A program made the translations under genes and the position numbers. Positions 11,439 to 36,711 of a stretch of DNA of 64,000 bases are shown here, piece by piece. The notes below the pieces were generated by a model. That model was not told where the DNA came from. It worked only from the letters and a program-made list of their open reading frames with translations, and did not search any database. This stretch comes from Yuukianura sp. NJ FZ-2021. Taxonomy: Eukaryota. The stretch covers positions 1,488,001 to 1,552,000 of the forward strand of contig CM102284.1 in assembly GCA_046563655.1 (NCBI GenBank), in the 5' to 3' direction. Position 1 is the first letter of the stretch. The number at the start of each line of letters is the position of its first letter.

Positions 11439-12306
11439 TTTTGAAATACTTTTTGACAAAACCGAAAGTTTTTACAAAGTGTTTTAAACTTTATTTTTAA
11501 ATTGTTTTTTAAACTAAAAACTTTGAACCTTAGACCTCATTCACATCTACGGAAGTGAAATTTATAAAATTGGATAACCAAAAGTGTGCTAAAATTTGAA
11601 ATGATATCAAAAGTAGGACTGATCTGAAATTATAAAGACTCTCATTGGTTTATAACTTGCACATTCCTCTTTTTGTCGAATTCAAAGTCGAGGAAATTTT
11701 TGGTCAATTCATGAGTAACATCAGAAATTAAAGAAAATCAGGATAAACCGGTTCCTGCAATTAATTTATTTTTATCTCTCAACATCGTTATCGTTATGCA
11801 AAAAAAAAACGCAAACTGCTTATTCAATTTCTTTGTAAACAATTCCACGAAGAGGTAGCGATTTTTTACAAAAATCATTTCATTAACCTAGTATAATAGG
11901 AAGATTGGGCAAATCAACTTATAAGTTGAGCCGGACAGACCGACATGGTAATTCCTCAAAGTGGTTTTCAATCCCTAAACATGTTTTTCAAATTTTTTTT
12001 GTCCCAAGCATTAATTATTACCTGACAAAAAGACTCCAAGGACAAAATGGCATGACAAGTCTAATTTCTAGTCGTGTTTCAAAATTTACTTTTCACAACT
12101 ATTGTTCCATTATTTCTGAGCAACATTTTTTCAAAATCAAGGAAAAAGAAACTTAACCTTGAACATGAATTGTCGAGTGACACGAGTAAAGTAAGACATG
12201 ATTTTTATAGATAGGTGAAACTCGATTTTCAACTTCGATTTCGAAAAAGTTACAATTCAAAAAACCTTTTTCAAAAATAAGTGATTTCATGTCATCATTT
12301 CTACTA

Positions 12307-15300
12307 TTACGCTAAAATCGTTTCTGAAAATATACGTTGAAGAATTTGTGGCAGTTTGGTTGTGTCTAAGCAAACGTAGGCTTTGCCTGGTGGCAACCGT
12401 GACTTCAACCTGAAAATCAAAATTCCAAAATTTCAGAATTTTTGCTTTCTGAAAAATTTCTGTTTTCATATTTTATACAAATGCATATTGAGTATTACTT
12501 CTCTGCTTGGTCACCCAAAGATCCAATGAAAATTGCAAATGCCTTGACATCTTCATTTGAATTCAAAATTTTGCTCAACTCCCGCGGTGGAATTCCGTAC
12601 CGCTCCAAATTTGCATCCGACAGCATAATGACAAAAGATTCATCGAAATCGTCCACCTCTTTGGCCAAAGTTTTTATCGCTTCATCTGTGGCTTCCAGCG
12701 TGTTGTCACCGGAAGAGCAGAACTGACTGTGTAAATGCATTACGCGCATGACATCCAGTCGCTCCTTATTGTCTTTCGGTTCCTTCCCGCGCTCAACAAC
12801 CGGCAACTTGAAATCGTCACCGGAGTGTCCCACAATGTCATACTGAAACATTTCTTCAAATCCAGAAAAACCCTCCATCACCATCAGAGCACATTGGAGC
12901 ATTCGGTCCAGTCGACGGTCATATCCATTGAAACTGGTTTTAAAAAAGCGCCAAATATAGATTTCTTTGATTTTGAAGAAGTTGCCAAACCTGAAATGCA
13001 AAATTCCATTACCGATACATGGAGCCTGACACATCGACGATGAGCATAAGACGTTTTGGTTTTTGCTGAGGATCTCCAGGTTCTGGAACTTCTTCTTGCC
13101 TCAGGCGATAAATGTTCTTTTCCCCAACGACGCCTGCAAAACAGTAGTTTTTTCGAAATCATTTCGAATTTTCAAGTTTTCAAAAATATTTGAATGTATT
13201 TTAGGAAAACCTTCAATGATTTTTGTGTCGTCCAATTCGCCTGACGTTTGATGTCTCACCCACTTCCGCTCTTTGGCCTTAGCCTGAAGGGAACTCAAAA
13301 TCACTCGTAAAGCACCAATCTAGCATCAATAAAAAATTAATAAAAAAAAATCTTTTCTGAACTTTTTTTTTTGAAAAAAAAAAATTGCCTGTGGCCTAAT
13401 TGGTCCCAAATAATCTTCGTAGACATTTCCTTCATATTTGCTCATCTTGATTTCATGCAGTTTCTCTTCAAAAGCCTTCTGAGCCATAGCCCGTGCCATT
13501 TTTCGGGCTTCTGGTGACAAAGCTTGTTTCACAGCATCTGAAACCTTGCGAATTTTCAAAAAAAACTTTCAAAATTTGTTAAAAAAATGTCAAAATTTTT
13601 AGTAATTTTAGTTTAACCTGGAAGACAGGATTGCCAGAATCCAGTCTGTAGGGACCACCGACTCCACCTAGCCCCGCCGTATCTCTCCCACCGGAGCCAC
13701 CAGCCCATGTGTTGCCACCAACATGAGGAGCTCCAGTGGCGTCAACTTGGCCGTGCTTAGGGCCCTTGAAGTCCGATTCCTGGAAAGTCTTGTCACTCAT
13801 TCGAAGCGGGTCCAAGTGACCTTGACTTTTCAATTCCGGAAGCTCCGAAACCGAAACACGGCGAACTTCCAACTCACTGTAACAAGAAATTCTAGTTCAT
13901 TTTAACAATAATTACAACATTGTTAATTAAAACTATCAATTTTTTTGTTTTTGTTGTTAAGTAATTAATGCATTCTTACCCTTCATCAGTGTATCTTCTC
14001 CTTAACATGATTCCTTCAGAAGGTTCTAGTTTGTATTTCTTGAGGGCTTTTCGAACAGTTTTTCTGAGTTCGTTGTTGTACACGTCGAAATCAAAAACGT
14101 TATCGATTGCTTCAGCGAGAGTATCACTGGGATACATTTGTAAGTGCTTCACAATGTTCACAGCTTCTCTGGTTGAGTAAGGATAAGAAATCGTTCCCTC
14201 GTCGGCAAGTGCCCGAAGATCTCCGAATGCCTTTGCAATTCTTTCCAGAAAATCAACAGGAATGTTGGGTCCATACTCCTTCAGCAGAGCCATCTCTGAG
14301 TCGAAACTCGGATTATCAATTGCATGAACACTGAATAAATCACCTGAAACACAAGTTGGTTAGGTTAGAAAATGGTAGTTGACGTGGATGGTTGGACGTA
14401 ACTTTAGTAAAATTTTTGAAATTACCCAAAACTGAGAAAAAATCGTTTCCTAGAAAAGGAAATCCGGGACGATTGGCTAAAACGAACATTCGAAATTCTG
14501 GATGGAGTGGAATAATTTTTTCTAATTTTTCTGGCTCTAGATGTTTGTAGTGCGTATCAAACAAGGCCATTGGTACAATTCTACGGTTGTCTGACAAAAT
14601 CATTTCACCACGCTCCGCGAGTGTCTGTATAAAAAAAAAACGTTACACAGTTTTTAAATTTAAAAAAAAAACTGAAAAAGTTTTTAGCATTTTCACACTC
14701 TTGAAGCTAACTTACTTTAAGAATTGATGTGACATGAGTAGGGGCCTTATCAACTTCGTCGATGATGATTACATGACCTTCACGAGCCGCTCGAACTAAT
14801 GGAGAATCTTCAAAGGAAACAATTCCATCTACAACTTTCTGTTGCAGCGTCAGCGCTTGAACTGTCGTGTCTCTGAATTCATAAAAGTCAAAATTAACCA
14901 GTGGCTAAAGAATTCAAACCGATTAAAATCATGTTGTAACCAACCTATGAAGTTGTATGTACTCCCTCGGACGGTTGAGAAGGAACAACAGCTGATCAAC
15001 CAATCTTAAATCGCAAACAAAAACTGTAGTTACTAAAACTGATTATATAGGCTACCACCTACCAATTGCCCGACCACTTACCACTTTCCCGACCACTTAT
15101 CACTTTCCTACCACCTATCAATTCCATACCATCTATCACGTTCCGACCACCTACTACAACTTACGCTGCCACAACACTACCACCAGTAGCCCCGCGCTGG
15201 CACTTTTTTCATGTAATTAGATATTTGCAATGATAATGAATGATTAAATTCATACTTGTTTTTCCCAACTCCTTGATTCCCAACCAGCAAAAGATGTTGA

Positions 15301-18300
15301 CCAAGGATGTAATCACGTAACAGTTCTTCTAAGGCAGCTACATGTTGTTGGATATTGTAGAACAGGAGCTGTGGAACTTTCGACTTGAACTGCGTGTCAG
15401 GCCAAACTTCGGTTCTAGTGTTGCCAATTTTAAGAATTTTCCCGTCGTTCTCAAACTCCACACTTAACATAGGCTGGGAATCGCTGCTGCTCAACGTTGG
15501 TAGGATTCCATTGTCCTTCATACACCTCTCTAGCTCTTCTTTGTTCAATTGCGGTAGAAATCTAAAAATACAAAAGGAAAACTTCAGAATCCAAAATCAG
15601 CTGAATTTGTTAAATTTTACCTTGCCAGACATGCGCGTGAAACTTCTTCAAAGGGTCCATGAGTCAAGTCGATCGAACTGAATTTCTCAGAACGTTGTGC
15701 AATTCGAATTAGTTGGCGGGTTGACATGGAGGATGCCAAAGACTTCTTAGATGATTCGTGCGACTGACGAAGTGCTCGAGCCGTTTGCAGGATTCGTTCC
15801 ATGTGACCGGTTGCTCCTCCTTTAGAACACTGAAAATCAGAATTTATACTGAGTTTTTAAAACATTTGTAAAAAGTATTTTCAGTTTGTATTTACAAAAG
15901 CCTCGATCACATCCAGTTCTTCTTCCATGGACATTTCAGGTAGCTGGTGGTAGAAGAATAAACTGAGCATTTCGGGAGTTAGCCACTGCTTCTGCGTTTT
16001 GTTACTCCCGCCAATCTGCGGCGGATTTGCACTCGCGACTATGTAAAAATTGGGGTGAATGCAGTACAATCCTTTCTCGTTGTTCATTTGATCGTCGGTG
16101 TAACCGTATTGGGATTTGAGCGTGTTGTAGCGATCAAGTCGTAGAAGACGAGTTCCATCATGAAGTTGCAGTTCACGATCCTGTACTAACCTAAACATGC
16201 AAAACAAAAGTTAAAAGATTTTTCAGAAAAAAAAAATGATTTGAAGCGGGAAAAACTTAAAATTTTGAAAAGTCTTACCGATGGATGACAGCGAGCGTGC
16301 TTGGATGTAATTGATCAATTCCGTCTAAAACTGCCATTTTCCCCTCCAGAGCAGCTTGGATCAGCGGAGAATTGATCCAGATTGTATCTCCCTCTTGATT
16401 GGTTGATCTCTGTTGCAGCAAATCCCGGGCCGTCATGTCCTAAACAATTCAAAAGTTACACACGACACACATTTCATCAACAGCAAAAACTTCAAGACTT
16501 CAATTTTACAAAAATATAATTACCTTGTACAGAACAATCGGTTCAATTTTAGCACCAACTAAATCAGCGAATCTTGAAATGAGCACACTTTTGCCAGAAC
16601 CACGATTTCCGATAAGACAGATATCACGTCCCACGCGGTGGGATTCCAGCATTTCACTTAGCACCACTTCTTGTGAAGGAATTGAAACGTATTTGAGGTA
16701 TCCTTGTTCCTTTTCCGGTTGCGGTAATTTCCTTTTCAGTTTCTTGATTCGCTCAATTTTGAATCCAGACTTTTCCAGAATCTGTTCAACGGCACTCACT
16801 TCAGCTCCAATCTTACTTTCAGCGTGAACGTGGGCTTGAGCGTCTTTGGACTTTTCTAAAAGGAGTTCATAAGGATAAAGGCGTAGTAGTAGGCGGTAGA
16901 GCGATGCCTTAGGATCTTTGTTCTAAAAAAAAGTTTCAACAAAAAGTTTTTCTAACATGTTTACACAGCTTCAAATTTGTTTACAACTGACCAATAAACG
17001 AGCAGCATCGTACAGATTTTCAAGTGGAAAATGTGGAAGTGATATTGCCCATGGATTGTTTTCGGAATCTCGAAAATCGGGATCATTGGACCAGACGACG
17101 GAATAAGCAAAGTTTGTGAGCGTAACGAGTTTGTCGACTGGCGCCTCTGGATTGAGTGATCTCAGTCTTAAAAGCATTTCCTAAAATTCAAAACACTTTC
17201 TTCATAATGTCAAGAACTAAAGAAAAGTGGAATCTTACTTCATTTGTGAGCGGTATGATGCTTCTTCCTTGAAACCTTGAGCGAAGGGGTGGATCCAGTG
17301 GATTGCCTTTAAAAAATGGAACTGGAAGGCCAAGAGCTATCACACGGAAATCTTCATGAACGCGTACCAATTTCCATTTGTCCAGTGTCTCCGCACCGTG
17401 CTCCTACCGAAAATATTAAAAATTGGACACGGCATAGGAGTAAATGCATTTCGGTTGCTATTACTTTGAGTACTAATTGAGTTGAATCGGAGATTCACCT
17501 TCAGCAATTTATCGTATCTCTCTGCTCCAATCAGGTGACGTCCATCTTCGAGATGCATTTCTCTGTTTTCAAGTAAATTGTTAAGCAACGGCAGAACATT
17601 TCGCTCAGCTTTTTCAATTCCTTCTATTACCAGGAGCCGCCCTTCCGTCGCTGCTCTGACTGCACTCTAAAATTGAAAATAAGTTGAATCAGCTGATTGC
17701 TTTCAATGCATTAATGGAATTGCGAAATAAATGTTAAATTCACATTGTGAATACCTGATCAAAGTATTGAGCCGTTTTCCCGATAACTTCCCGTCGCTGT
17801 TTCAAATCTGCTTCAGTGGTGTCTCTTGACAGAGCAACAAACTCAACCTCCCTACTGGTTAATTCAGCAAAGGCAAACGCCAAGTGCCTCCTTGTCGAAC
17901 CAGGGGGTCCGACCAAAAACACATCTTGTCGAAGCAGATCCTTCTTGAGTATCCATTGCAGATGGGCCAATTCCGTTTGCGTAAAGCCGGAATCATCTTG
18001 AAAGGAGACGCAGCAATAATAATTGATTATATTCTGTAGGATCAACAATCAATAGTTATACAACTTGTACTCGGTGGGAGAACGTACAGTAAAGCACTGG
18101 TATTAGATGCGGACTCTTCGGCTCGTTGACAATTTTATAAGCGGATCCAATCGAAACACGTTGAGGATAAACACCGTTCTTGATCACTCCATCGTTACCT
18201 CCTGAAAATAATAGGTATGAAAATTCAAAATTTTAAAGGTTTCTTTAGTTTAGTCTATGTAAAAGCCTACCGATTGATATAAATCGTTTTAAAAAAGGCA

Positions 18301-20378: not shown

Positions 20379-22670
20379 CTACTCTGTTAGTGATAAGGTT
20401 TCCAATTCGATGCAATTGATTTCATCAATGGACTGATGCTCAGCAGTGCTAGTTTTTGCCATTGATTTCGAAGTATTTATGTGACGTGTTAGTTTGCACT
20501 GGATTTTGATGTTGCGGAAACTAAACTTATTTCTACGCTCCCAAAGAAATATCAGAGATGCCGCTGCTAGAAGCGGCAACAAAATAAAAAATGCAACTCT
20601 GATTTTGTCAGACAAAGCAATTTCCTTGACATTTGGCCCAGTTACTGCTACATACCTTTTCTTCATTTCCTTCAAAAAAATTTGCAAGTCGTCCAAGTTT
20701 TTCCAAAATTTAACAATTCCTGCTTCCTGTACTCTCTTTAGACGAGGTCGAATGTTTCGCTCATGCAAATCCCAAAGTACCCAACCAAATACTCTACTCC
20801 ACAAGCTGTCTTGGCCTTTGGACACTAATTTTGCATTAGGATCTTGATATGACGTTGTCCAAAGACGGTATTCCGAATCTATCACATCTGACCATTCCAC
20901 AATTGCCGTACCGTTACAACTCTTGAGCAATGTCGTTAGCTCAAACTTTTCACCATCAAATGCTAGAAACTGTTCCGGAATTTTTAGCTGCTTGGCAACT
21001 GATTTCACCGTTTGAGACACCTTGGTGGTATTGGATACCAAAAATTGCTGTATTGATGCTGCAGGACACGTCGAATTGCGTAACGAGGCTCGTATAATTG
21101 GAAGTAAGCTGCTCCACCATATCGTAGCCCATACACTGCTGAGTGGTGAAAATGCATGGCCACAATGTTCCGCTGAATTTTGCTGAAGGTTTTTGAACTG
21201 AGAAACTGGCCGCACATAGATAGTTTTATTGAGCATAATCAAGTGTTGGAAAGTCGTAGCAAGTGGTATCAGCCTTGGAGATGTAATAATTGCAGTCATT
21301 ATGCTCCTATATCCATTTGTAATTACTACAAATGTAAGCAAAGTTGCACCCAGAATCCAATACATCTGGTTGTAGCGACCAGGATTTAGAGCAGAAGCGA
21401 AGCTATGTTCTAACAGTGTAGAGTACATAGTGGTAAAACCATCGCATCTTTTTTTCTTCCATTTTAAAATCAAATTTGCCGTTTTTCCAGCGACAAGCAT
21501 TGCAACTACTAGAGCAATCCAGACTTCTTTGGAACAGGGAACGATTAGGCTCGTAAAATCTGAAGTTTCATCTAGCCTGATACCGCATGCCAAGAATCGA
21601 AAAGCCAATTTACTCGTCTGTAGATTAACGTTGTAGCCAGTATGAAAGAAAACCACAGGATGGCTATAATACGTCATATTTTGTGCGCCTAAACAACTTA
21701 TGCTATTAATCCAAATCAAACTTTTGTTGGTGAGCACTGTTTGAAGTAGAATAGGTTCCCAAGAACCGTTTTGGTAAGATTTTGCAGTAAGATAGTTTGG
21801 TTTTTGTATGTTTTCCGCACTATCATCCCAGGTTTTGCTTGTAGCTTTTATAACAGCCAGTGTTCCAAGCTGGTTATCAACGTATTCAAACATTTGCTTA
21901 ATGTATGCCAAGGAGTATTGTGTAAGTTCAAGGGGAATCAATGTAAAATTACACGTTTCACAGTGTGGGCAAATTATGTTAACCTCTGAAATTCGAATTT
22001 TGACGGTTTGGCCTTGTTTATTAGCTCTAGTGATCGATTCGATTTGTTGTGTTGTATTAGACACACCTTGTAAGTGGTAAACCATAAAGTACTTGATGCC
22101 ACAACGTTCAAGAAGATGTGTTCCCAGTAGTCGAGCGGCCATGTACCAGTTGGTAGCTAGCTGTAGAATCTTTGGTCCTACCAAAGTAAATATTGAAGAA
22201 GAACCGTAAACAACTTCAGCAGGTTCGGTAACCATCGCGTATGTAGGTTCACGCCAATACTGCAAATAGAACTGTAAGTTGGTTGGAAATTGAAAGCTTG
22301 GGCTGTAGAACGTACCAAGTGTGCCTGGAGTTTCAACTAGGAAAACGTAGTTGACACATTTGTAGTACCGTGAGTGTGCGTATTTGAAAAATATTTCTGT
22401 TGGTAAGGAGCTGTAGTAGCCTTCAACATACTTCTTAGTGTTGAGATTGAATCCATATTTGTAACGAATGTCTTGAAATGTGGCGGGAAACGTAAATGGT
22501 TCAAGATCGGTGTTGTTGTAGTTGATTAAGTGAATGTGACATTCGGTACTGAATGGCTCAAACCATTTGTTCAAGTCCAACCGCCGAAATTCCTTGTTTG
22601 ACTCAACTACAAATACTTGGAGAATAAGCAGTATCAAAGTTGCAATCACCAACACTGTATTCTTCCACAT
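20379..22670 (-). CDS. Divergent ionotropic-receptor (IR)-like chemoreceptor, intronless, copy 1
   Basis: Signal peptide from the ATG at 22670; M1 'PCSKEVWIALVVAML'; M3-like 'TFVVITNGYRSIMTAIITSP'; S2 end 'LKRVQEAGIVKFW'; final TM helix. This is the iGluR/IR topology. Confidence 0.8.
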   Translation of the reverse strand: MWKNTVLVIATLILLILQVFVVESNKEFRRLDLNKWFEPFSTECHIHLINYNNTDLEPFTFPATFQDIRYKYGFNLNTKKYVEGYYSSLPTEIFFKYAHSRYYKCVNYVFLVETPGTLGTFYSPSFQFPTNLQFYLQYWREPTYAMVTEPAEVVYGSSSIFTLVGPKILQLATNWYMAARLLGTHLLERCGIKYFMVYHLQGVSNTTQQIESITRANKQGQTVKIRISEVNIICPHCETCNFTLIPLELTQYSLAYIKQMFEYVDNQLGTLAVIKATSKTWDDSAENIQKPNYLTAKSYQNGSWEPILLQTVLTNKSLIWINSISCLGAQNMTYYSHPVVFFHTGYNVNLQTSKLAFRFLACGIRLDETSDFTSLIVPCSKEVWIALVVAMLVAGKTANLILKWKKKRCDGFTTMYSTLLEHSFASALNPGRYNQMYWILGATLLTFVVITNGYRSIMTAIITSPRLIPLATTFQHLIMLNKTIYVRPVSQFKNLQQNSAEHCGHAFSPLSSVWATIWWSSLLPIIRASLRNSTCPAASIQQFLVSNTTKVSQTVKSVAKQLKIPEQFLAFDGEKFELTTLLKSCNGTAIVEWSDVIDSEYRLWTTSYQDPNAKLVSKGQDSLWSRVFGWVLWDLHERNIRPRLKRVQEAGIVKFWKNLDDLQIFLKEMKKRYVAVTGPNVKEIALSDKIRVAFFILLPLLAAASLIFLWERRNKFSFRNIKIQCKLTRHINTSKSMAKTSTAEHQSIDEINCIELETLSLTE

Positions 22671-23159
22671 GCTTATTTGTGAACAGAATGGCAAGTATTT
22701 TTGCTGAATATTTTGACCGTCATTTCAAGCGCAGTGCGGCAACGCGTAGCACCTTGAGAAATAAAGTCAAGTGAAAAAGAATTTTCTCTTTTGATTTTTT
22801 TTTCATCGTTGTGATGGCTATTTACATAAGATAAGTTCCATAGATATCTTGCATGGCTTGCTTGTCTTTTATGTCCACATGACACAGACTTACCTATTTC
22901 CCATTTGGACATTTTTCACTTCTTGTTTTGGTGTTATGTGCCATAGTGTGTTTACTCAACTTTAATGTAGGACGAGGCAGAATTTGAGTATCAACTATGT
23001 CACAAGGTCGCTTTTTAAAACTATTTTTTATTAGCGAAGGGTTTCAATAAGCTGTACATAACTTGGGAAATGAGTCATAATGAGGGATATGTTTTAACCG
23101 AACTTGGAAAAACGTTTAGCAAGGTCACCTTACGCCTGAAAATTGATTGATTATACTTG

Positions 23160-24110: not shown

Positions 24111-26354
24111 TTAGTTGTCAGTGACTTCAATACTGCACAAATGCTTAGATGTGCTAGGTTTTACCAATACCTTCCAACTATTGGTGCCGCGTATTTGTTG
24201 GCTTTGTTTTTTGATTTTGCGGAAATTAAACTTATTTCTACGCTCCCAAAGAAATAGGAGAGATGTCGCTACTAAGAGTGGCAACAAAATGATAAATACA
24301 ACTCTGATTTTGTCAGACAAAGCAATTTCCTTGACATATGACCCAGCTACTGCCACATGGCGTTTCCTTACTTCCTTTATAAAAATTTGCAAGTGGTCCA
24401 AGTTTTTCCAAAATTTAACAATGCCTGCTTCCTGTACCCACTTTAGGCGAGGTCGAACGTTTCGGTCATGCAAATCATAAAGAGCCCAACCAAATACTGT
24501 ACTCCACAAGCTGTCTTGGCCTTTGGACACTAATTTTGCATTAGGATCTTGATCTGACGCTGTCCAAAGCCGATATTCCGAATCTATCACATCTGACCAT
24601 TCCACAATTGCCGTACCATTACAACTCTTGAGCAATGTCGTCAGCTCAAAGTTTTCACCATCCGTTGCTAGAAACTGTTCCGGAATTTTTAGTTGCTTGG
24701 CAACTGATTTCACCGTTTGAGATACCATGGTTGTATTAGATGCGAAAAATTGCTGGATTGATGCTGCAGGACACGTTGAATTGCGTAACGAGGCTTGCAT
24801 AATTTGATGTACGCCGCGCCACCATATCGTAGCCCATACGCTGCTGAGTGGTGCAAATGCATGGCCACAATGTTCCGCTGAATTTTGCTGAAGATTTTTG
24901 AACAAGGGAACTGGCCGCACATAGATAGTTGTGTTGCGCATGATTAAGTGCTGGTAAGTTGTAGCCAGCGGTATCTGCCTTGGGGATGTAATAATTGCAG
25001 TCATGATGCTCTTATATCCATTTGTAATTACGACAAATGTAAGCAAAGTTGCGCCCAGAATCCAGTACATTTGGTTGTAGCGACCAGGATTTAGAGCAGA
25101 AGCGAAGCTATGTTCTAACAGTGCAGAGTACGTAGTGGTAAAACCGTCGCATCTTTTTTTCTTCCATTTTAATACTATATTTGCCGTTGTCCCAGCGACA
25201 AACATTGCAACTACTAGAGCAATCCAGACTTCTTTGGAACAGGGAACGATTAGGCTCATAAAATCTGACGTTTCCTTCAGCCTGATACCGCATGCCATGA
25301 AACGAAAATCCAATTTACTCGTCTGTAGATTAACATTGAAACCCATATGAAAGAAAACCATAGGGTTCAAATAATGCAGCATATCGTGTGTTCCTAAGCA
25401 ATAAACCCTATAGGTCCAAATCAAACTTTTGTTGGTAAGTACCGTTTGCAGTAAAATTGGTTCCCAGGTACCCTTTTTGTAAGATTTTGTTGTAAGATAT
25501 TTCGGTTTTTGTATCTTTTTCTTACTGTCATCCCAAGTTTTGCTTGTAAATTTGGTTACCCCTAGTATTCCAAGCTGGTTATCGACGTATTCAAACATTT
25601 GGTGAATATATTTCAAAGAATATTGACTATGCTCAAGGGGAATCAATGTAAATTTACACGTTTCACAGTGTGGGCAAATTATGTTTACCTCTGTAATTAG
25701 AATTTTGCCGACGTTTTTGACTTGGGTAGTGATAGATTCCATTCCTTGCGTTGTACTAGTCACACCTTGTAAGTAGTAGACCATAAAGTACTTGATGCCA
25801 CCACGTTCAACAAGGACCCCAAGTAGTTTAGCAGCCACGTACCAGCTAGTAGCTATTTTTAGAATCTTTGGTCCTACCAATGAAAATATTGAAGATGAAC
25901 CGTAAACCTCATCAGCAGGATCGGTGTCCGCGTCGTATTTAATTCCACGCCAATACTCAAAATAGAACCACAAGTTGGTAGGAAATGGAAAGCTTGGGCT
26001 GTAAAACGTACCAAGTTGGCCTAGAGTTTCAACTACGAAAACGTAGTTGATACATTTGTAGTACCGTGAGTGTGCATATTTGAAAAATATTTCGGTTGGT
26101 AAGGAGTTGTAGTAGCCGTTAGTATACTGCTTAGTTTCATGATTGTACCCATATTTGTATCGGATGTCTTGAAAGGTGGCGGGAAACATAAATGGTTCAA
26201 GCTCTGTGTTGTTGTAGTTGATTATGTGGATGTGACATTCCGTACTGAATGGCTCAAACCATTTGTTCAAATCTAACCGCCCAATTATCGACGTTGATTT
26301 ACTTACAAATCCTTGGAACGTAAGTATTACTACAATCCAAATCCACGAAGCCAT
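24111..26354 (-). CDS. Divergent IR-like chemoreceptor, intronless, copy 2 (747 aa)
   Basis: Full-length paralogue of 20379-22670 with the same motifs. Confidence 0.8.
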   Translation of the reverse strand: MASWIWIVVILTFQGFVSKSTSIIGRLDLNKWFEPFSTECHIHIINYNNTELEPFMFPATFQDIRYKYGYNHETKQYTNGYYNSLPTEIFFKYAHSRYYKCINYVFVVETLGQLGTFYSPSFPFPTNLWFYFEYWRGIKYDADTDPADEVYGSSSIFSLVGPKILKIATSWYVAAKLLGVLVERGGIKYFMVYYLQGVTSTTQGMESITTQVKNVGKILITEVNIICPHCETCKFTLIPLEHSQYSLKYIHQMFEYVDNQLGILGVTKFTSKTWDDSKKKIQKPKYLTTKSYKKGTWEPILLQTVLTNKSLIWTYRVYCLGTHDMLHYLNPMVFFHMGFNVNLQTSKLDFRFMACGIRLKETSDFMSLIVPCSKEVWIALVVAMFVAGTTANIVLKWKKKRCDGFTTTYSALLEHSFASALNPGRYNQMYWILGATLLTFVVITNGYKSIMTAIITSPRQIPLATTYQHLIMRNTTIYVRPVPLFKNLQQNSAEHCGHAFAPLSSVWATIWWRGVHQIMQASLRNSTCPAASIQQFFASNTTMVSQTVKSVAKQLKIPEQFLATDGENFELTTLLKSCNGTAIVEWSDVIDSEYRLWTASDQDPNAKLVSKGQDSLWSTVFGWALYDLHDRNVRPRLKWVQEAGIVKFWKNLDHLQIFIKEVRKRHVAVAGSYVKEIALSDKIRVVFIILLPLLVATSLLFLWERRNKFNFRKIKKQSQQIRGTNSWKVLVKPSTSKHLCSIEVTDN

Positions 26355-27813
26355 TACGCCTGTGTATTAATGTATTAATTTAGAAAAGTTTTTTTTAACT
26401 TCCAAGTAAAGTTTTACTGATTCAGACAATTATAACTGAAATTTTCGACGAGAAAGAATTGATCAAAAGCTTCAGCTTACAACGGCAGCATTCTTAATTT
26501 TTTATAAATAATATTCTGTTGCTATCAAACATATTTATCGCGTGCAAAGACAAAAACCTTTTCCAATTTCTAAATTGCTAATGTGTTATGTGACTAAAAA
26601 TGTTCACGGGAGGCATTTTTTCTTTAAAATTATATAAACATTAGGTAATTGTTTTTTTTAAAGTTCCATAGATGTTAGTTTATTTCTAAAAGTGAATATG
26701 GTGTAGAGCGCGTTAGTATTATAAATAGAATTGTGAAGAAATTTTACTCGGAAATATGGCAATTTTTTTTGCAAATTCCTAAGCTGTCATTTTTTCCCAG
26801 TGTTCTGTAAACTATTGCATAAACGAAACCTTACGTTGAAGTGGTTTGCATAAGAACTCCAATGGGTTTGAGATGTCACTGTCAATCCAGTCTAACCTTG
26901 ACGGTAACCAATGTACCAAAAGAAAGTCTATCAGTTGTAGGTTTGAGAGCAAAAAATATTTTAATCGTGCCTTTTGTTAGTCATCGAAACTCCATAACTG
27001 TAAAAGCAAAGTGAAGATGTCCTCAAGTACTCACAGTACGTTTATGTCACTTATCAAAAAAGAAAATTTAAAATACAATTTGATTATTATATAATAATTC
27101 CAACTTTGCACAAAACTTTTACCATCGGAGTACCACAATGAACCAAGCTCGAAGTTCCCGCTGTTTAATTTAAAATGGAAAACAGAATGAATCTTAAGGT
27201 TTTCTTTTAAATAAATTTTTGTTTAAAACTAACATTTATGTAACAAAAAATATATTCATTTTTGAAGTACTGTGCCGTTGGAAAGTTTGTTTTGTGGCGT
27301 CGCGAATTATTTGTAAGTAATGCTGTGTCAAATTGAATTTCTGCTCAAAACGATTCAAATTTTTCGAAATTATATTTTGATAAAATTTACTATATACATG
27401 CTGATTGCTGATGTAATTTGAGTATATTCTCATTCCAAATGTTGTGAACCATGTGCGACCTTCAAACACAATTACGAGGAGGGTTTGTGGGTCTAAAAGT
27501 TATCTCTATGCATACTATATCTTCCAGTCTCAAGTATGTGAAACACGCAAACGAAACAGTTGATTACACAGTGGAACTCAAAACGAAAATTTATCTATCA
27601 AAAATACATATTTAAAGCTATTCAGAATTAAAAAAGAATACAGTCCGTATTTACAAAAAAAATTGCAAAAATAGTTCCAGTTTTAAGTAAACTTACAGTT
27701 ACGTGCCAGTTGGCTTTCAAATTGCGAGTCTTTTTCCACTATATACTAAAAACAATTACAGGACAAATTCGTTTTTTTTTTCAAAATTCGAAAAAAATTT
27801 TACTAGGAACAAC

Positions 27814-29289
27814 ATGGAACTACTTCAAATTGTTCTTGGTTTGATTTTGATTGTGATCGGCCTCGTCTTAAGTCTAATTCTGTTCATGGTGTGGTCTTTT
27901 ACGAAACTATTCGACTCTATTCAACCATACGAACTATCAGCTGATTCGGCAACATCACAAGCAATTCCGTCTGGCTCAAAAGAACCGAATCCACTTTTTC
28001 GCTACTTTCCGCACTTGCGTAAGAAAATAGCCTGGGAAGAACTGGGAGTATATCCGACCCCAATTCACTCTGCATATTTGGATTTAAATGGCCGCCGAAT
28101 TTCGTTTTGGATGAAACGAGAAGACTTAAGCAGTCCAATTTACGGCGGAAACAAAGTCCGCACACTTCAGTATCAAATTCCGGCCTGCGCAGCTCGAGTT
28201 GCCGAAGATCCAGGAGCACAAATTTTCGTCGTAGGGAGTGGCGGTTCAAATCAAGTTGTTGCGACATTAGCCCATGGTACTCCATTCGACCTCAAATTTC
28301 ACGTGGCTTATGCAGCTCCGGATGCACCCGATTTGGACAACACACTGAACTTACTTTCTGCACTGTCTCTTGGACCGCTAAGTTTGAAACTCTGGGACAA
28401 AGTTTTACCGCAAGTCAAACGATTAGTGATGGCCGCTACGTCAAAACGAGATAAAGTATTTGGAATGGGCGGAAACAGTTTGGGTGGGATTTTGGGCCAA
28501 ATTGGCGGAGCACTTGAATTGGCAGAACAAATTGAGGCTGGCGAAATTCCTGACGTGGATGAAATTTATTTGCCGTTAGGATCTGGCTGTACCACAACTG
28601 GACTCATTCTGGGTGTTTGTTTGGCACGACATTTGAATCTCAAGGCTTTTCGCTCTAAAAATTTCAAAATTGTGAGTATTCTAATCCATGGTGGATTTGC
28701 TGGGCTTAATCGAAAAACGAACTTCATTAAAGGCTGGATGGGAAAATTTTTATTTGTGTCACCACAATTTGGAATTCCGCGAACAGCAGCGTTTTTGAAA
28801 AAACACACAGGGATTGATCTGGAAGCGTCTGCACTAAAGTTTGTCCAAGAAGAATGGGAAGTCGTTGATTGTCCGGATTACATTGGGGAATATGGAGCAC
28901 ATTCTGAAAAAAGTGCAACTGCGTCTGCGCATGATCACAAACTGGTTGTTAACGGCCCATGTCCATCCTGGATATCCTCGGAATCACCACCACAACCTTG
29001 GCTGTGCGGCCACTTTACTGGAAAATCTTTTGCGGTAATGCTTGATCGCTTAGAAAAATTGAGCGAAGGTTCAGAAATCAACGCTCTTCTCTGGCAAACG
29101 AAAAGCAATGTACAACCGCTTGGACCACAGGAGGAATGGGAGGAATTTCAAAAATTGGCAGGAAATTCAAAAATTTTGAAAAAGTGGTCAGATGAAGGCA
29201 AAGCGACGTCGGTTTTACGGCCTGGACAAGTCAATGTAGAAGGTGGAAATACAGGAGACTACAGACCGCTCATGAAGAAAATTTTTTAA
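27814..29289 (+). CDS. PLP-dependent ACC deaminase / D-cysteine desulfhydrase-family protein with N-terminal membrane anchor, intronless CDS (491 aa)
   Basis: 'LGVYPTPI', 'KREDLSSPIYGGNKVRTL' (PLP lysine), 'GSGGSNQ' and 'LPLGSGCTTTGL' (phosphate-binding loop). Hydrophobic N-terminal segment 'LLQIVLGLILIVIGLVLSLILFMVW'. Confidence 0.85.
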   Translation: MELLQIVLGLILIVIGLVLSLILFMVWSFTKLFDSIQPYELSADSATSQAIPSGSKEPNPLFRYFPHLRKKIAWEELGVYPTPIHSAYLDLNGRRISFWMKREDLSSPIYGGNKVRTLQYQIPACAARVAEDPGAQIFVVGSGGSNQVVATLAHGTPFDLKFHVAYAAPDAPDLDNTLNLLSALSLGPLSLKLWDKVLPQVKRLVMAATSKRDKVFGMGGNSLGGILGQIGGALELAEQIEAGEIPDVDEIYLPLGSGCTTTGLILGVCLARHLNLKAFRSKNFKIVSILIHGGFAGLNRKTNFIKGWMGKFLFVSPQFGIPRTAAFLKKHTGIDLEASALKFVQEEWEVVDCPDYIGEYGAHSEKSATASAHDHKLVVNGPCPSWISSESPPQPWLCGHFTGKSFAVMLDRLEKLSEGSEINALLWQTKSNVQPLGPQEEWEEFQKLAGNSKILKKWSDEGKATSVLRPGQVNVEGGNTGDYRPLMKKIF

Positions 29290-29496
29290 AGTTGAAATGA
29301 CAATTCATTAAAAATTATTCATTAAAATTTTCGCATTACTTAACAAGAAATAAATTTTCACCACGCTTCAAATCGCCCCAAATTCTGAATCATATTTTTA
29401 AAAATGTTTACTTTATCCAATCCTTGATTACTAATTTGCGATAATTTTTCAATAAAAATTTACATTTTAAGTTTAAATGATGGTAAATATTTTTGT

Positions 29497-30853
29497 TTAC
29501 TTAATTGCAATGAGCACAAATGCAATGCCTTGCACAACGTTGTCGAAAAGCGTCAACTTGGCTTTTTCCTCCATGTGATAAAATGTACCCACCGTACATT
29601 TCAAAACAGGAAACGACTTTAAATTCTTTTGGATTTCAAGTTGTTTTTCAAACGTGACGTTCTTGTCCATCCTTACAGCGTTAAGTAAATTTGGACAAAA
29701 TTGTTTCGAAATTTCGTAAGTGCTTGACATTGTGACTGCTCCCGACACAATAACCAGCACAACTGTGAATAAGTATACAGCCGCAATGCATACAATTATG
29801 GTCGAGAGGGATTGGCGCAGACGTACAAGGCAGCAGACGCAAGAGAAGCAAACCAAAACGGTTCCCATCTTTAACGCAGGAACAAAAAAAGTTCCAAATC
29901 CAACGTTGTAGGCTGTATTCAAAATCGTCATGGACCGGTAGATGAAGCAACGCTTGTCGTATACTAAATCGTTTCCGGCCTCTTCTGTAGTTCTCTCAGA
30001 CAAATATGTGCTGAAATATTATTACATACAAATATATTTTATAGATATATACGAATAATATGCATACTTATGCATATGCACATGGAGTATTGGCCATGGC
30101 TTACTTGTACATATTTACACAACTAAAGACATTTGTTATTGACATAGTTAGTTACCAGCACTTCTTTAGCCAAAACGTGGACGTAAGCAACGTCGATACT
30201 GCAACTGCAAACAACAAAATTGTGTCATGCATAAACACGAATTGAGTGTAGAGCAATCCCACGACAAATGGTACAGCGTTCCAAGAAGTAATTGCATCGA
30301 TGTTGAGCGCCAAATTTTGAATAGTGTAGAATGTAACACAAATTCCAAGGGAAATTATCACCAGTGCGTACAAACGTCCACGTCTGGTGCATTTTGTGTC
30401 TCTATCATTTCGTAGCAGGAGAGAGCCTGTAATGGATAAATTTAATGCATGGTAGTGATAAATATTTTATATAAACATTCTCAAAAGTGCATAAACGTCA
30501 AAATTATAACCTAGAGTTTTCTGCAGTCCAATAATAGTGTTAGCGGTAAAAGTTATTTCATCACTGTACATCCATACTGACAGTCGGCAGAAAAAGGCGC
30601 CAATTAAAACAATGTTCACAAGGGAAAACATTACTTTTCGTTCAGTATTCGTTTGAGAAATTTCCCAGCAACAGTAAGTGAAGTAGCCAATCATAAGCAG
30701 AAGTGGTGCCTGATTTGCAACGGCGTCCTTGTACTTGCTACGTTTTTCTGAGAAAAGAAGCCCATCTTTGTAAGAAATTTTAAGAAGACGTTTGAAAATC
30801 GAAACAAATTTCAACGCCGTACGAAGCACACAAAGCTCATATTCTGTCAGCAT
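29497..30853 (-). CDS. Divergent gustatory-receptor-like multi-pass membrane protein, copy 1; exons 30853-30511, 30426-30156, 30010-29497 (375 aa)
   Basis: Multiple hydrophobic helices; C-terminal 'LKCTVGTFYHMEEKAKLTLFDNVVQGIAFVLI' resembles the GR/OR TM7 region. Exon sum of 1128 nt is in frame. Confidence 0.7.
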
Positions 30854-31649
30854 TCTTAGGCAGGTTTTAGTAAGGGTAAGTTTTAAGTAAATTAACTTAA
30901 CTTTGTTAACTCTGGTTTGTGTTAAGTTAAGCCAATGTTGAAAGTTAAACCAATGTTTATGGTACTTGTGTGTCACAACACAAGTGTGGTAAATACTTGA
31001 ATTTGTGCTAAATTTTGGTACTTATACTTGGATTAACCCAATTAACTAAACTACTCAACCTTAATTACTCACTAAATTAAAATTGTATGGATTTTGTTGA
31101 AAATTTCTTTTAATGTACGTAAATACTTGTTTATGTGTGTGAAACATTGCTTGTTTAATGGACTTAGAGTATTGACTTAAGTACTTGTAATGTACATAGA
31201 CTAGACAGGTTAAGAAACAAGGCTTCATTAAGTTACTCACGTCAACAAAACAACCGGTTTGCGAAATTTCCTAGGGAAAGCTTAATTACTATAATTTTGA
31301 GTTACTTAGGGATAAGTATGGTGATCTAGGAATAGATTAACCAACACTTATATAAATCGATGCATTGTCACCAAAGTACAATTAAACTGCAAACGAGAAG
31401 CCGAATTAAGGCGGGAAACAGGTACTATACATAATATTTATACGGTTTTCCAAATTTTCAATGGTAAATGAGCTCTACTTTGACTAAACTTTCCTTTTTC
31501 AACCGCATAGTGTATGCACTTCTTGTTTTTTCCGACGAAACGTCTAAACATTAGGCGCTTCTAAAAAACATCGTTTGTTTCGAATAGTAATTATAAGCTA
31601 TCAAGTTTAACTAAAGTATTTTTAACTTGATTTCATTTCATGTAAAATT

Positions 31650-33016
31650 TTACTGAAATGCAATGAGTACAAATGCTACGCCTTGAACAATGTTATCCAC
31701 CAAAGTTAACTTTGCCTTTTCTTCCATGTGGTAAAATGTGCCAACTCTACATTTCAAAACAGGAAAAGATTTCAAATTTGTTTTGATTTCAAGTTGTTTT
31801 TCGACTGAAATACTCTTGTTCATCCTCGCATGTTCGAGACAATTTTGAGAAAACTGTTTTGAAATTTTGTATGTATTAGACATAGTAAGTGCTCCAAATA
31901 AAATAACAATAGACACTGTAAACAGGTATACCGGAGCAATGCAGAGTAGGATGGTCGAGAGCGATTGGCGTAAACGTACTAGGCAGCAGACGCAGGAAAA
32001 GAATACAAGAATCGTTGTGAGCTTTAATGTTGGAACAAAAAAAGTTCCGAAGGCTATGTTGTGAGCGGTATTAAGAATTGTCATGCACCGATATATGTAG
32101 CATCTTGCTTCGTACGAAACATCATTTTTGGCAGTATTCCCATTGCCCAAATACTTGCTGGAACAAATATACATACATGTATCTTCATATACGCATGCAT
32201 GCCAGATACATGTATATTACATACATGTAATATACATGTATATTAATCGTTTACACATAATTAAAATATTCAGTGTTACCCGCATTCGTTTAGCCAAGAG
32301 GTGGATGATAGCACTGAAGATGCGAAAACTGAGAAAAGAAAAGTTGCATCATGCAGAAACACGATTTCGATGTAAAGGACTGCTAAGGCAAAAGGTGCGA
32401 CAGTGTAGTTATTCTTCGCTGGAAAATGAACCGCCATATTTTGAAATGGGTGGAAAAAAATACAAATTCTGATGAAAACAAGAAGAATAGCGTAGACTTG
32501 TCCTGCAGTTTTTCTTTTTTTTTCCTTCCGATCGGTTATGAGGGATCCTATAGTGAGAAATTTTGAATTATCTATTTAACATAACGTTATTTCTATTACT
32601 TAACTTTTTTTAAAAGTACAACCAGAAAATGTCAAATAATTTTAAATTATATTTCTTCTTGTTGAATTTTTACCAAATGTCCGTTGCATCCCGAGAATGC
32701 TGTTGACAACAAAAATTACTTCTCGACTGTACAACCAAACGGACAGTCGGCAGGCAAACATCGCAAAGGTAATCATATTCGTAATGAACAAAATTACTGC
32801 TCGGTCGGTGCTAGAATGTACCACTTCCCATGAACAGTAAATAACATAACAAATGAGAAGAAAAAGCACCAATTGGTTAGCAGCAGAGTGCTTGCAATCA
32901 CTACGCTTTTCCTGGAGCAAGTATCCATTGTGATACGAAATCAGAAACAAGCGCCTAAATCGTGAAATAAATTCCAACGACTTGCAAAACACAGCGAACT
33001 CAACTTTGGTAAGCAT
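31650..33016 (-). CDS. GR-like membrane protein, copy 2; exons 33016-32674, 32547-32280, 32157-31650
   Basis: Paralogue with the same intron phases (1, 2); 1119 nt in frame. Confidence 0.7.
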
Positions 33017-34127
33017 TTCAGTTGTTGTTAACGTACTGAAGAAAACCAAATGAATTGCCCTAAAGTAGGTAGTATGTCCAGCAGAGTAGATAAGCTTGTT
33101 TAACCAGCTTCGATGCTGAATTATAGGAATAAGGCGTTGTTGAAGTTTGTGTAATTGTTCGTATTAGATATAATCGCGCTATGAACTGAAGATATAATCA
33201 CGATAATTTTAAGGGAGATCTTTTATTTTGATTCTACGTTTGTTCAATACAGTTTTTGTGCTCGACAGTGAGAAAATGGCTTCAATTATACCCCTTCACC
33301 ATGTGAAAGGGGACAAGGGGAGTTAAATCAATTTAATTAAAACTTAATTGACTCGATCGTTTTCCGATTAGATTACATGATTATAATCTTAATGAAGAAA
33401 TGAAATTTTATTTTTTACTCTGAGCATTTTCTTCTGGTTTTGAGCTTATAAGGACAAAGCCATTTATTCTAATACGGTATTGATAAAAATAAATAATGAA
33501 AATGAAACAGAATTGTTCTAAAGCGTATTACTGCTCATTAGAAGAAAAGAGAATTAACAGTTTTGCGTTCTTCTCAGTTTAAGTGCTCCCTTCGTTATCA
33601 AAGTTAAAGCTTTTTTTACTTTTTATGCTTTAAGCAAACAGTTGTTGTAAATGCTGCTGGAAGGAATGCGGCCATAATCAGCTAACTTAGATATAACTTA
33701 ATACATGTCAAAATCACTGTATACTTGTTAAATAACGTAACTAGGGTTAGTTTATGATCCATAGAAGGTGGAATTTGCCTTACAAAAGTTAATTATAATT
33801 ATAATAAATATAATTATAATTATAATTATAATTGATCTTTCAAAAACAGGAAATTATTCAAAACAGCAAGTGTGAAAACTGGTGCATGCTTCTGTTGCTT
33901 TTGCTTGACAATTAAAAACTATAGTTTCAGAAATTTTACCGCGGTAGAGATTTGGTTTTATTATGTTTTGTGAAACCCGAGAAAATCGATATATTGCTGG
34001 ACACAGTCTCTGGTATCGAAGAATTGGAAAATCAACATTAAAAAAGCGAAGGAAATTCACAAAAAAAGCTATTCCGTGAATCAACCGCAGTTAATGCTAA
34101 GTAATGACAAAATATTGTGCCACGACG

Positions 34128-35513
34128 TTACTGATACGCCATGAGTGCAAATGCTATACCTTGAACAATGTTATCTACTAAAGTTAACTTTGCCTTCTCT
34201 TCCATGTAGTAAAATGTACCAACTCTACATTTCAGAACAGGAAAAGATTTCAAATTTGTTTTGATTTCAAGTTGTTTTCCGACTGAAATACTCTTGTTCA
34301 TCTTCGCATGTTCGAGACAATTTTGAGAAAACTGTTTCGAAATTCCGTATGTATTTGACATTGTAACTGCTCCAAATAAAATAATAATAGACGCTGTAAA
34401 CAAGTACAGAGCCGCAATTATGACGAGGATGGTCGAGAGAGATTGGCGTAAGCGTACTAGGCAGCAGACGCAAGCAAGTAATACCATAACTGTTGTCAGC
34501 TTTAGCGTGGGAACAAACAATGTTCCGAAGGCTACGTTGTGAGCGGTATTCAAAATTGTTATGCACCGATAGATGTAGTATCGTGCCTCATACGAAACAT
34601 CATTTCCAACTGTATTCTCCTTAGTCAAATGCTTGCTGGAGAATAAAAAAAGAATAACTATTTCCTACATATATGTAAAATTCATGTATAAAATAAATAC
34701 ATATAAAAATATTAGATACATGTAATATGTTAGTAATGATATATTAAATTCTTTTACGTTGCACAAATAATTATGATAACCACTTACCAGCATTCTTTTA
34801 GCCAAGAGGTAGATGATAGCACTGAAGCTACGAAAACTGAGAAAAGAAAAGTAGCATCATGTAGAAATACCGTTTCGATGTAAAATAATGCCAAGGCAAA
34901 GGGTACAAAAGTGTAGTTATTCTTTGCTGGAAAATGAACAGCCAAATTTTGAAATGGGTTGAACAAAATGCAAATTCTGACGAAAACGATAAGCACAGCA
35001 TAGATTTGCCCTGGGGTTTTTCTTTTTGCGTCCTTGCGAGCGGTTGTGAGGGACCCTACAAAGTGACAAGTTATGCAATGCATACTTAATTCTTTTTTTT
35101 GCTATACTTAATTCAATTTTTTCAAAAGTACAAGCGGCAATTTTAAATTATATTCCTTGTTATTTAATTTTACCCAAATTTTGTTGCATCTTGAGAATGC
35201 TGTTGACGACAAAAATTACTTCTTGACTGTACAACCAAACGGACAGCCGGCAGGAGAACATCGTTAACGTAATCATATTTGTAATGAACAAAATTACTGT
35301 TCGGTCGTTGCTAGAGTGCATCATTTCCCATGAACAATAAATAAAATAACAAATTGGAAGAAAAAGCACCAATTGGTTAGCGGCAGAGTGTTTGTAGTCG
35401 CTTTTTTGTTGGAACAAGTAACCATTCTCATACGAAATCAGACACAAACGCCTGAAACGTGAAATAAATTCTAACGACTTGCAAAACACAGCGAGTTCAA
35501 GTTCGGTAAGCAT
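34128..35513 (-). CDS. GR-like membrane protein, copy 3; exons 35513-35174, 35055-34788, 34635-34128
   Basis: Close paralogue of copy 2; 1116 nt in frame. Confidence 0.7.
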
Positions 35514-35859
35514 CTCCTCAGTCGTTTGTTGTTATCTAAGGCAAGTAAGTCAAATGGATTGTGTTAAAGTAGAAAGTTCGTTGAAGTAGATTTTCTCGTT
35601 TGACTTGTTTTGACACTAAATTATGGGAATAAATATGTTATTAAGTTTGTGTAATTGGTCGTATTAGATATAATAGCGCTATGAACTTAAGATATAATCA
35701 CGATAATTTTAAAACTCTAAGGCTTTTTATTTCCATGAAACAAAAACATTACTCAAATGCTAAATTTTTACTATTTAAATTTTTGCCGATAAGTACAGTT
35801 CTTGCCTAATCAAACATTTTGTTGAGTTCAGGAATAGTAGGCGAGGAGGGAGCACGCCA

Positions 35860-36090: not shown

Positions 36091-36711
36091 TTCATTTTAA
36101 AAAGAAGTTTAGGTAAAATTTGTAATATCGTGTACTTTTTTTAAAAACAAAATCCCATCCTACGAAAGCTAACCAAACCTAATCTAACCGCTGTAGCAGC
36201 ATTGTTTAAGCCTTTCAAAAAATCAAAAATTCGCCTAACCTAACAAATTGGAGGCTACAACCTATTTTCAGAAAATGTTCATGTCTCCTTATTGGGAAAT
36301 TCAAATTTTCATGTGCCTTATAAATATAAAATTTAATAAAACCGGCTTGCGCTTGAATTTTTTTTCCACAAAAAGTGGGTTGTCCTCGCTGAAATTTTGC
36401 AGAAAAGGGTTTAACTTCAGCGACAAGAAAAACATTTTAGTTCGATTGTTTTAAAAATGGGCTTTCATAAGTTCTAACAGGAAATAGGGTGATTAATATC
36501 CGTTTCCGTGGGCGTTTACTTCGGTAAGAAGTTTTGGAATTGTATTTTTATTATTACAAGACTTCTACTCGAATTCAAAATGTCAGAAATGGAAACATTA
36601 CCTGTATGACCACCGTTGGAAAAGTCATACCACTCATCGATTAAGACTTAGCCTTTGAGTTAGATTAACTAAAACACTCCATTGGTAACTATATTTGCTC
36701 TTATTTCGAAA

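Follow-up and report, generated by a model that had tools for sequence, protein, structure and literature searches.

A DcyD/ACC-deaminase-like enzyme with an altered predicted active site in an arthropod genome: a probable horizontal acquisition

The D-cysteine desulfhydrase DcyD (Salmonella typhimurium, E. coli and Pectobacterium; PDB 4d8t, 7ysk and 7ysl), the ACC deaminase AcdS (ACC standing for 1-aminocyclopropane-1-carboxylate; Pseudomonas and Hansenula/Cyberlindnera; 1rqx, 1tzk and 1f2d) and the Pyrococcus protein PhAHP (1j0a) are the described systems closest to a gene for a pyridoxal 5'-phosphate (PLP) enzyme at 27814..29289 (+) in an arthropod genome. The gene lies in a stretch of 64,000 nucleotides of contig CM102284.1 (GenBank assembly GCA_046563655.1, positions 1,488,001 to 1,552,000), which is called the window here and to which all coordinates refer; its protein is P0001. 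According to the available portion of PMC3344862, the Tyr287 phenolate of DcyD takes the C-alpha proton of D-cysteine, and the Y287F mutant of the Salmonella enzyme is inactive on all substrates. An excerpt of PMC4048297 defines ACC deaminase by Lys51, Ser78, Tyr295, Glu296 and Leu322; sequences with other residues there are set aside. Two further PLP enzymes belong to the same superfamily branch as P0001: CuyA, a D-cysteate sulfo-lyase, and XcbE, of bacterial coenzyme M biosynthesis. The latter acts on a cysteine S-conjugate, 3-sulfopropionyl cysteine, releasing a thioaldehyde and alanine or pyruvate plus ammonia, as an extract of PMC9457059 has it.

Horizontal gene transfer is described as frequent in springtails in abstracts that include those on the Folsomia candida and Orchesella cincta genomes, on beta-lactam genes and on carbohydrate-active enzymes. 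The PLP gene resembles such cases in being an intact, foreign-type metabolic gene among the host genes of a soil arthropod; its likely donor is a zoosporic fungus or an oomycete, and it has gained no intron.

The open reading frame (ORF) is uninterrupted and intact, a single exon of 491 codons followed by TAA, so that the lack of coding introns in the original prediction stands. Judged from sequence, the start codon is the true one, because the N-termini of homologues align from Met1. One copy of the gene is present in the 64-kb window (tblastn). An AATAAA lies 60 nt past the stop codon (29349..29354, +); this possible polyadenylation signal is likely to be a chance match, because the flank is AT-rich (GC 0.22). 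Repeats flanking the gene are short, AT-rich and chance-like, and neither terminal inverted repeats nor target duplications were found. A scan for bacterial signals gave four promoter-like sites where 5.5 were expected, and no terminators where 1.6 were expected. One joint in the public run X2, from 27793 to 29161, would skip the gene; it was set aside because its shorter side is 22 letters, below the guide value of 30.

Fold, membrane helix and active site

Pfam matches P0001 with one domain, PALP (PF00291), on residues 77-268 (E 3.5e-13; 50 bits against a gathering cut-off of 35), which denotes the fold-type-II PLP enzymes in general. An AlphaFold2 model built on 115 aligned sequences (pLDDT 96.4, pTM 0.95) places a DcyD/ACC-deaminase-like domain at residues 60-472 (27991..29229, +). 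In VIA-align comparisons, DcyD chains superpose with Z 30.5-31.9 and a root-mean-square deviation (rmsd) of 3.0-3.2 Å over 312-323 residues (7ysl_B, Z 31.9, 3.0 Å over 318 residues; 4d8t, Z 30.5), and ACC deaminases and PhAHP with Z 29.3-30.3 (1rqx_C, Z 30.3). The chains of all three kinds thus span Z 29.3-31.9, while threonine synthases and serine dehydratases reach 23 at most, and Foldseek gives E 9.5e-16 to 7ysk_A. On the predicted model, P0001 is a member of the DcyD/ACC-deaminase structural family, and the fold-type-II motifs first read from the letters are confirmed. Its identity to DcyD is some 20-22%, however, and its PLP domain exceeds the solved enzymes by about 90 residues, which lie in insertions and a C-terminal tail.

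Unlike DcyD, P0001 also begins with a hydrophobic helix (residues 2-33; 27817..27912, +), one helix in the AlphaFold2 model with a 19-residue Kyte-Doolittle maximum mean of 3.31, which is probably a single membrane anchor. The original prediction had noted this helix as an addition. The helix is indeed there, but it is no animal addition, being found in 95 of 113 eukaryotic family members, chytrids and oomycetes among them, and most of the exceptions look truncated at the N-terminus. The helices of the animal, chytrid and oomycete proteins align. None of 20 translated bacterial relatives (333-474 aa) has a hydrophobic N-terminal window.

These bacterial relatives come mostly from metagenome-assembled genomes (MAGs) of Myxococcota, with some Planctomycetota (loci L064-L143), and are 25-41% identical to P0001 over the core. 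They form a sister clade that is also the second-best Atlas cluster for P0001 (score 0.90), and they share with it YGGNKVRTL, W-x-T-K-S and Tyr360. In contrast to P0001 they are soluble, with the canonical L-D-x-x-Y and with His80 kept. On sequence comparison, the eukaryotic proteins are a eukaryote-specific, uncharacterised branch of the DcyD/ACC-deaminase family, named here the CGHF clade after its motif W-L-C-G-H-F. Its further traits are the N-terminal hydrophobic helix, YGGNKVRTLQ, W-Q-T-K-S and a C-terminal tail with S-x-L-R-P-G and D-Y-R-x-L-M. All of these are present in P0001, which also has the family's invariant residue at 29 of 29 invariant columns of the alignment. The clade is found in chytrids, oomycetes, green algae, haptophytes, pelagophytes, diatoms and labyrinthulids.

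The residues of the putative active site were placed by three agreeing alignments: hhalign to E. coli DcyD (probability 97.6%), a hidden Markov model (HMM) comparison to 1j0a, and MAFFT. The GGNKVRTL motif (residues 111-118; 28144..28167, +) aligns with GGNKLRKL of Salmonella and E. coli DcyD. It had been noted as a variant motif (usually RKL), but it is not private to this gene: each of the 74 eukaryotic and 20 bacterial sister sequences examined has it. Within it, Lys114 (28153-28155, +), the predicted Schiff-base lysine aligned to DcyD Lys51, is equally invariant (74/74 and 20/20). In the GGSNQ loop (28240..28254, +; hhalign), Gly144-Ser145-Asn146-Gln147 correspond to DcyD Gln77-Ser78-Asn79-His80. 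Gly144 is shared by every eukaryotic and bacterial relative (74/74, 20/20), whereas Gln147, found in 71 of 74 eukaryotic members, faces His in 19 of 20 bacterial ones. Gln at position 80 is a likeness to the ACC deaminases, to go by a passage of PMC3344862. The WQTKS motif (29092..29106, +; hhalign) carries Thr429, equivalent to Thr315 of DcyD and to Leu322 of ACC deaminase and again Thr in 74/74 and 20/20. Tyr360 corresponds to DcyD Tyr261, and Thr402 to Thr288.

A key difference lies in the CGHF motif itself (29005..29016, +; hhalign, HMM and MAFFT), where Cys398-Gly399-His400-Phe401 take the places of DcyD Asp284-Pro285-Val286-Tyr287. Phe401 stands at the position of the catalytic tyrosine (Tyr287 in DcyD, Tyr294 in ACC deaminase); it is Phe in 73 of 74 eukaryotic members, the exception being a gap, whilst the bacterial sister clade has Tyr in 20 of 20. 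Clean switches between the eukaryotic and bacterial clades occur at five positions only (147, 367, 398, 401 and 435), and three of these (DcyD 80, 284 and 287) are among the PLP-surrounding residues listed for Salmonella DcyD in the available text of PMC3344862. Cys398 and His400 are new invariant residues of the eukaryotic clade, beside the invariant Lys114, Ser145-Asn146, glycine-rich phosphate loop and Thr429.

Predicted chemistry

The gene could in theory encode a functional ACC deaminase or D-cysteine desulfhydrase, breaking down plant ACC or setting hydrogen sulfide free from D-cysteine, as was originally proposed. The nearest solved structures are indeed those of DcyD and ACC deaminase, and P0001 keeps the equivalents of Lys51, Ser78, Asn79, Tyr261, Thr288 and Thr315 together with the glycine-rich phosphate loop; Lys51 and Ser78 are the residues kept relative to the ACC deaminases and PhAHP. 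Of the two specificity determinants of DcyD, Ser78 is retained (Ser145) and Gln77 is replaced by Gly144; Thr288 and Thr315 also have their counterparts (Thr402, Thr429). The change of Tyr287/Tyr294 to Phe401 is the one reported, in the part of PMC3344862 cited above, to kill all activities of Salmonella DcyD. Against the defining list excerpted from PMC4048297, P0001 has two of the five ACC-deaminase residues (Lys51 as Lys114, Ser78 as Ser145) and fails the other three, with Phe401 for Tyr294/295, Thr402 for Glu295/296 and Thr429 for Leu322. This function is therefore improbable, and because the loss of Tyr is joined by the co-switches His80 to Gln147 and Asp284 to Cys398, with the invariant His400 alongside, it is, on the sequence, highly improbable that P0001 is a canonical ACC deaminase or D-cysteine desulfhydrase.

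Curated protein models point the same way. P0001 matches eight NCBIfam models, all far under their cut-offs (21-54 bits against 289-610). The best is XcbE (54 against 450) and the third-best CuyA (40 against 450), with no sign of sulfonate metabolism here. The ACC_deam_rel subfamily model TIGR01275 scores 45.5 against 289.4, the DcyD models NF003029, NF003030 and NF003032 score 25.4, 32.7 and 24.6 against 610, 429 and 469, and the ACC-deaminase models 21-29 against 392-550 (TIGR01274, 21.3 against 392). Thus P0001 is a DcyD/ACC-deaminase in fold and predicted cofactor binding, but it fails the catalytic-residue tests of both enzymes and is to be filed as neither. The database label of the family is 'ACC deaminase/D-cysteine desulfhydrase-like' despite the replaced tyrosine, and annotations that infer ethylene-precursor degradation or hydrogen sulfide release from CGHF-clade genes are, by the same residue comparison, probably wrong.

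In the proposed mechanism, Lys114 would bind PLP as a Schiff base, Ser145-Asn146 would hold the substrate carboxylate and Phe401 would stack on the cofactor ring. The probable reaction, by analogy with the whole structural family, is an alpha,beta-elimination or deamination of a small beta-substituted amino acid. Without the tyrosine, the proton could be abstracted by Lys114, which acts from the other face of the cofactor and would favour L-configured substrates, or by the Cys398/His400 pair. The anchor would hold the catalytic domain on the cytosolic side of an internal membrane. On the charge distribution, with Glu2 before the helix and Lys31 after it, the positive-inside rule suggests a cytosolic domain. 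The idea that the enzyme acts on plant or microbial amino acids at a membrane surface finds no support, and the charges would sooner argue for a domain in the cytosol.

The tyrosine-to-phenylalanine change that kills DcyD (the same excerpt of PMC3344862) could also mean that the protein is catalytically dead or a decaying relic, without PLP chemistry, serving as a binding protein or no purpose at all. However, Phe is fixed across the clade (73/74) together with the invariant residues of the pocket listed above, the pattern of a changed rather than a lost active site. In addition, the ORF is intact, and all eight variants inside it listed by the read-laying comparison are synonymous, the 6-kb stretch around the gene carrying 350 further differences beyond the variants listed. 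The probability of a relic is very low.

Host genome and origin of the gene

The PLP gene is integrated in an animal (arthropod) genome. It might be objected that assembly wrongly joined animal DNA to the ORF of a chytrid or oomycete that lives on the animal or inside it, since the nearest named relatives of the gene are microbes found in soil and on arthropods, and since the public runs X1-X3 may share the assembly's sample. However, the same animal gene adjoins it in an independent metagenome contig, L001. This neighbour is a multi-exon host gene with AAA/dynein-type ATPase exons (12300..18170, -; a weak AAA_5/AAA_16 match on one exon), which stands head-to-head with the PLP gene and serves as the synteny anchor. 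By tblastx, L001 has about 25 exon-sized matches to it, in the same order and at 73-96% amino-acid identity, and some 1.45 kb past them a single-exon, 490-aa PLP orthologue 62% identical to P0001; the corresponding gap in the window is 9.6 kb. In contig L003, a single-exon orthologue of 487 aa (53-55% identical) directly follows an animal cadherin gene with ten cadherin repeats and EGF and laminin-G domains (E 4.8e-195). Both junctions of the window gene are bridged by contigs from public runs (X3 record 19, 27355-27859; X1 record 4, 29233-30364; X2 record 15, 28004-31500), and run X5, from a separate study, contains pieces related to the gene and to the flank upstream of it. The base composition of the ORF (GC 0.438; GC at third codon positions, GC3, 0.36) is like that of host exons (GC 0.395-0.48, GC3 0.37-0.49), with flanks at GC 0.22-0.30. 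Because of the L001 synteny, the L003 cadherin neighbour and the bridging contigs, which come from two studies, the gene is not a contaminant. The misassembly that the original prediction had named as a danger is not borne out; that reading is largely refuted and retains next to no probability.

The host arthropod is probably a springtail. The sarcosine-oxidase-like ORF at 2434-3366 (+) finds its best named matches in Orchesella cincta, Bradysia odoriphaga, Orchesella dallaii, Bradysia coprophila and Allacma fusca, and an exon of a glucosamine-6-phosphate deaminase gene (GNPDA; 45901-46470) is 74-84% identical to metazoan proteins. The neighbours of the PLP gene had been called intron-rich. 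This is true of the ATPase gene, with its many short exons, but between the two genes lie a tandem pair of single long ORFs of 781 and 751 codons (20379-22724 and 24111-26366, both -), neither with a Pfam match. The former falls in Atlas clusters of arthropod ionotropic-receptor-like proteins (scores 0.90-0.97), in which Arthropoda is the commonest phylum, and the latter likewise falls in clusters of such proteins. The 1.45-kb gap of L001 is too small for ORFs matching these two.

The distribution of the gene was assessed from a database search with P0001 that gave 317 matches, of which the best 120 were listed, with about a quarter of the proteins named; what follows refers to these 120. The top four are unnamed singletons, 55-61% identical, three of them the proteins of L001, L002 and L003. 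The organisms named are oomycetes (Achlya, Saprolegnia, Aphanomyces), chytrids (Clydaea, Globomyces, Physocladia, Obelidium) and algae or other protists (Cymbomonas, a pelagophyte, Prymnesium, Aplanochytrium, a diatom and Tetraselmis). No animal, choanoflagellate, non-chytrid fungus or holozoan protist is named among them. Three annotated springtails, Orchesella cincta, O. dallaii and Allacma fusca, are represented in the database searched, yet none appears. A library of 50%-identity representatives (1.84 billion proteins) holds 90 representatives at E 1e-30; the best full-length one, from a chytrid (P0007), is 48% identical, and above 50% identity there are only short fragments. Widespread arthropod orthologues, which would have spoken for ordinary descent, are thus not seen in this list. 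Where the original prediction placed the family typically in bacteria, fungi and plants, with roles in ACC and D-cysteine metabolism, the actual relatives are chytrids, Saprolegniales oomycetes and algae.

No literature was found on the CGHF clade or on such a gene in arthropods, and the supplements of springtail genome papers, one O. cincta file lying outside the search, have no PALP, aminocyclopropane or D-cysteine desulfhydrase entry for the family of P0001. Matches in the Holacanthella supplement were rejected: they are a bacterial L-cysteine desulfhydrase without relation to this family, and that paper itself files one of them on its contamination sheet.

The main tree is a maximum-likelihood tree (IQ-TREE, LG+C20+F+G4 with posterior mean site frequencies, PMSF) of 52 rows, with support given as ultrafast bootstrap/SH-aLRT; the rows were drawn from an 89-row quick tree comprising 74 of 121 eukaryotic and 15 of 20 bacterial proteins. 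The five sequences from animal contexts form one clade (100/99). They group with Globomyces and an unnamed sequence, u_P0011 (98/92), then with Clydaea (100/96), and lie within a clade that unites chytrids, Saprolegniales and animals (100/99). Pairwise identity among the five animal copies is 51-62%, at which level synonymous sites are saturated. The gene is best read as acquired horizontally, on the tree and the distribution together: a small, deeply diverged animal clade stands against a list of matches in which no animal, non-chytrid fungus or holozoan protist is named. The tree favours a chytrid-like donor, and the gene was most likely gained from a zoosporic fungus, with an oomycete (water mould) as the alternative donor. 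The transfer would predate the split of at least the window species and the L001 species.

The competing account is old vertical inheritance, in which a gene of the opisthokont ancestor survived in chytrids and in one arthropod lineage and was lost elsewhere in animals and fungi. The divergence of the five animal copies implies that the gene is old in its lineage, as this account would have it. However, many independent losses would be needed in place of one gain. No animal, choanoflagellate or non-chytrid fungus is named in the list, the three annotated springtails are missing from it, and the best tree puts the animals inside the chytrids with bootstrap 98-100. The gene is also intronless in all four animal contexts whose DNA was read. 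Vertical inheritance is unlikely.

The fuller explanation, likely as a whole, is that P0001 is the product of a single-exon arthropod gene, an anchored PLP enzyme of the CGHF clade, most likely gained horizontally, kept under purifying selection since its acquisition and changed in its chemistry. Several points weigh against this explanation. The absence from other animals comes from the names in one list, about a quarter named, of the best 120 of 317 matches. The animals group with chytrids, fellow opisthokonts, and a sister position would fit old descent. Approximately unbiased (AU) tests (IQ-TREE, LG+F+G4; 26 of the 52 rows, 489 columns) do not reject a clade of chytrids and oomycetes without the animals (p 0.166), which leaves the animals as its sister as vertical descent would allow, nor monophyletic chytrids (p 0.175), nor animals with oomycetes (p 0.111). 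Because these three alternatives stand, neither the donor nor the nesting inside the chytrids is statistically secured. The foreign-type gene and its place among chytrids at 98-100 bootstrap favour the transfer of the original prediction, with p values of 0.11-0.18 for its alternatives. The best named matches behind the springtail assignment are 44-46% identical. The equivalence of Phe401 and Tyr287 comes from sequence and profile alignments rather than from inspected coordinates. Finally, the gene neighbourhoods of the bacterial relatives are heterogeneous. Of 112 flanking ORFs computed, 92 were scanned, 20 mostly short ones having been dropped by hand, and among the 92 there was no recurring partner or functional clue. 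The recurrences were an NAD epimerase (4), an ATP-grasp ligase (3, plus one RimK-like), a class-V aminotransferase (3), and peptidase S46, VanW, polysaccharide deacetylase and an iron-trafficking protein (2 each), most ORFs being without a match.

A bolder form of the explanation, tentative and rather doubtful as a whole, is that the CGHF clade represents a new type of reaction on the DcyD/ACC-deaminase fold, with a stacking Phe for the Tyr base and a new Cys398/His400 pair at the PLP site, tethered to a membrane, captured by an arthropod from a zoosporic fungus and kept through deep divergence. If so, a switch to L-configured or sulfur-bearing substrates, or thiol-dependent C-S chemistry, would be possible, and an animal would have a piece of amino-acid or sulfur metabolism known from no other animal. 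Read as horizontal gain, the gene would be a well-documented example of an animal, here a soil arthropod, receiving a gene from another eukaryote, with synteny conserved in a second species. It would be one more transfer into a transfer-rich lineage, yet one that points to an enzyme clade that is widespread, strongly conserved and uncharacterised and whose predicted active site is rebuilt, and the CGHF family is a concrete target for enzyme discovery.

The Saprolegniales copies join the chytrid fungi (100/99), apart from the other stramenopiles (a diatom, a pelagophyte and a labyrinthulid). This grouping, which concerns P0006, P0008, P0010, P0013, P0015, P0018, P0020 and P0050, suggests from the tree a separate transfer of the PLP gene between chytrids and oomycetes. 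Aphanomyces species have several paralogues.

Other genes of the window

Directly downstream of the PLP gene, related genes of two exons each form an array (29497-35531, -, and 36673-38173, +); the small multi-pass membrane proteins that they encode might be chemoreceptor-like. Pfam at E up to 1 gave nothing usable on the ORFs of these small membrane proteins or on 20379-22724 and 24111-26366.

Several metabolic genes are found nearer the ends of the window. Exons of an AMP-binding (adenylation) enzyme run off its start (3-1191, -; PF00501, E 8.8e-35). For the sarcosine-oxidase-like ORF at 2434-3366, animals other than springtails and Bradysia fungus gnats match at 35% or less. Beyond it are three tandem, near-identical, intron-split glycosyltransferase genes (3924-6124, 6787-8526 and 9357-11471, all -), of which the exon scanned matches UDPGT as well as the bacterial-type EryCIII-like_C and Glyco_tran_28_C. 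The wax-ester-synthase/DGAT family is mainly bacterial and plant, and a long ORF at 42854-43981 (+) matches its catalytic domain with a score equal to the Pfam cut-off (23.6 bits). Towards the other end, three tandem FAD-oxidase genes of the D-arabinono-1,4-lactone/gulonolactone oxidase type (54764-56555, 57752-59574 and 61098-63165, all +) each have a cysteine-rich C-terminal exon.

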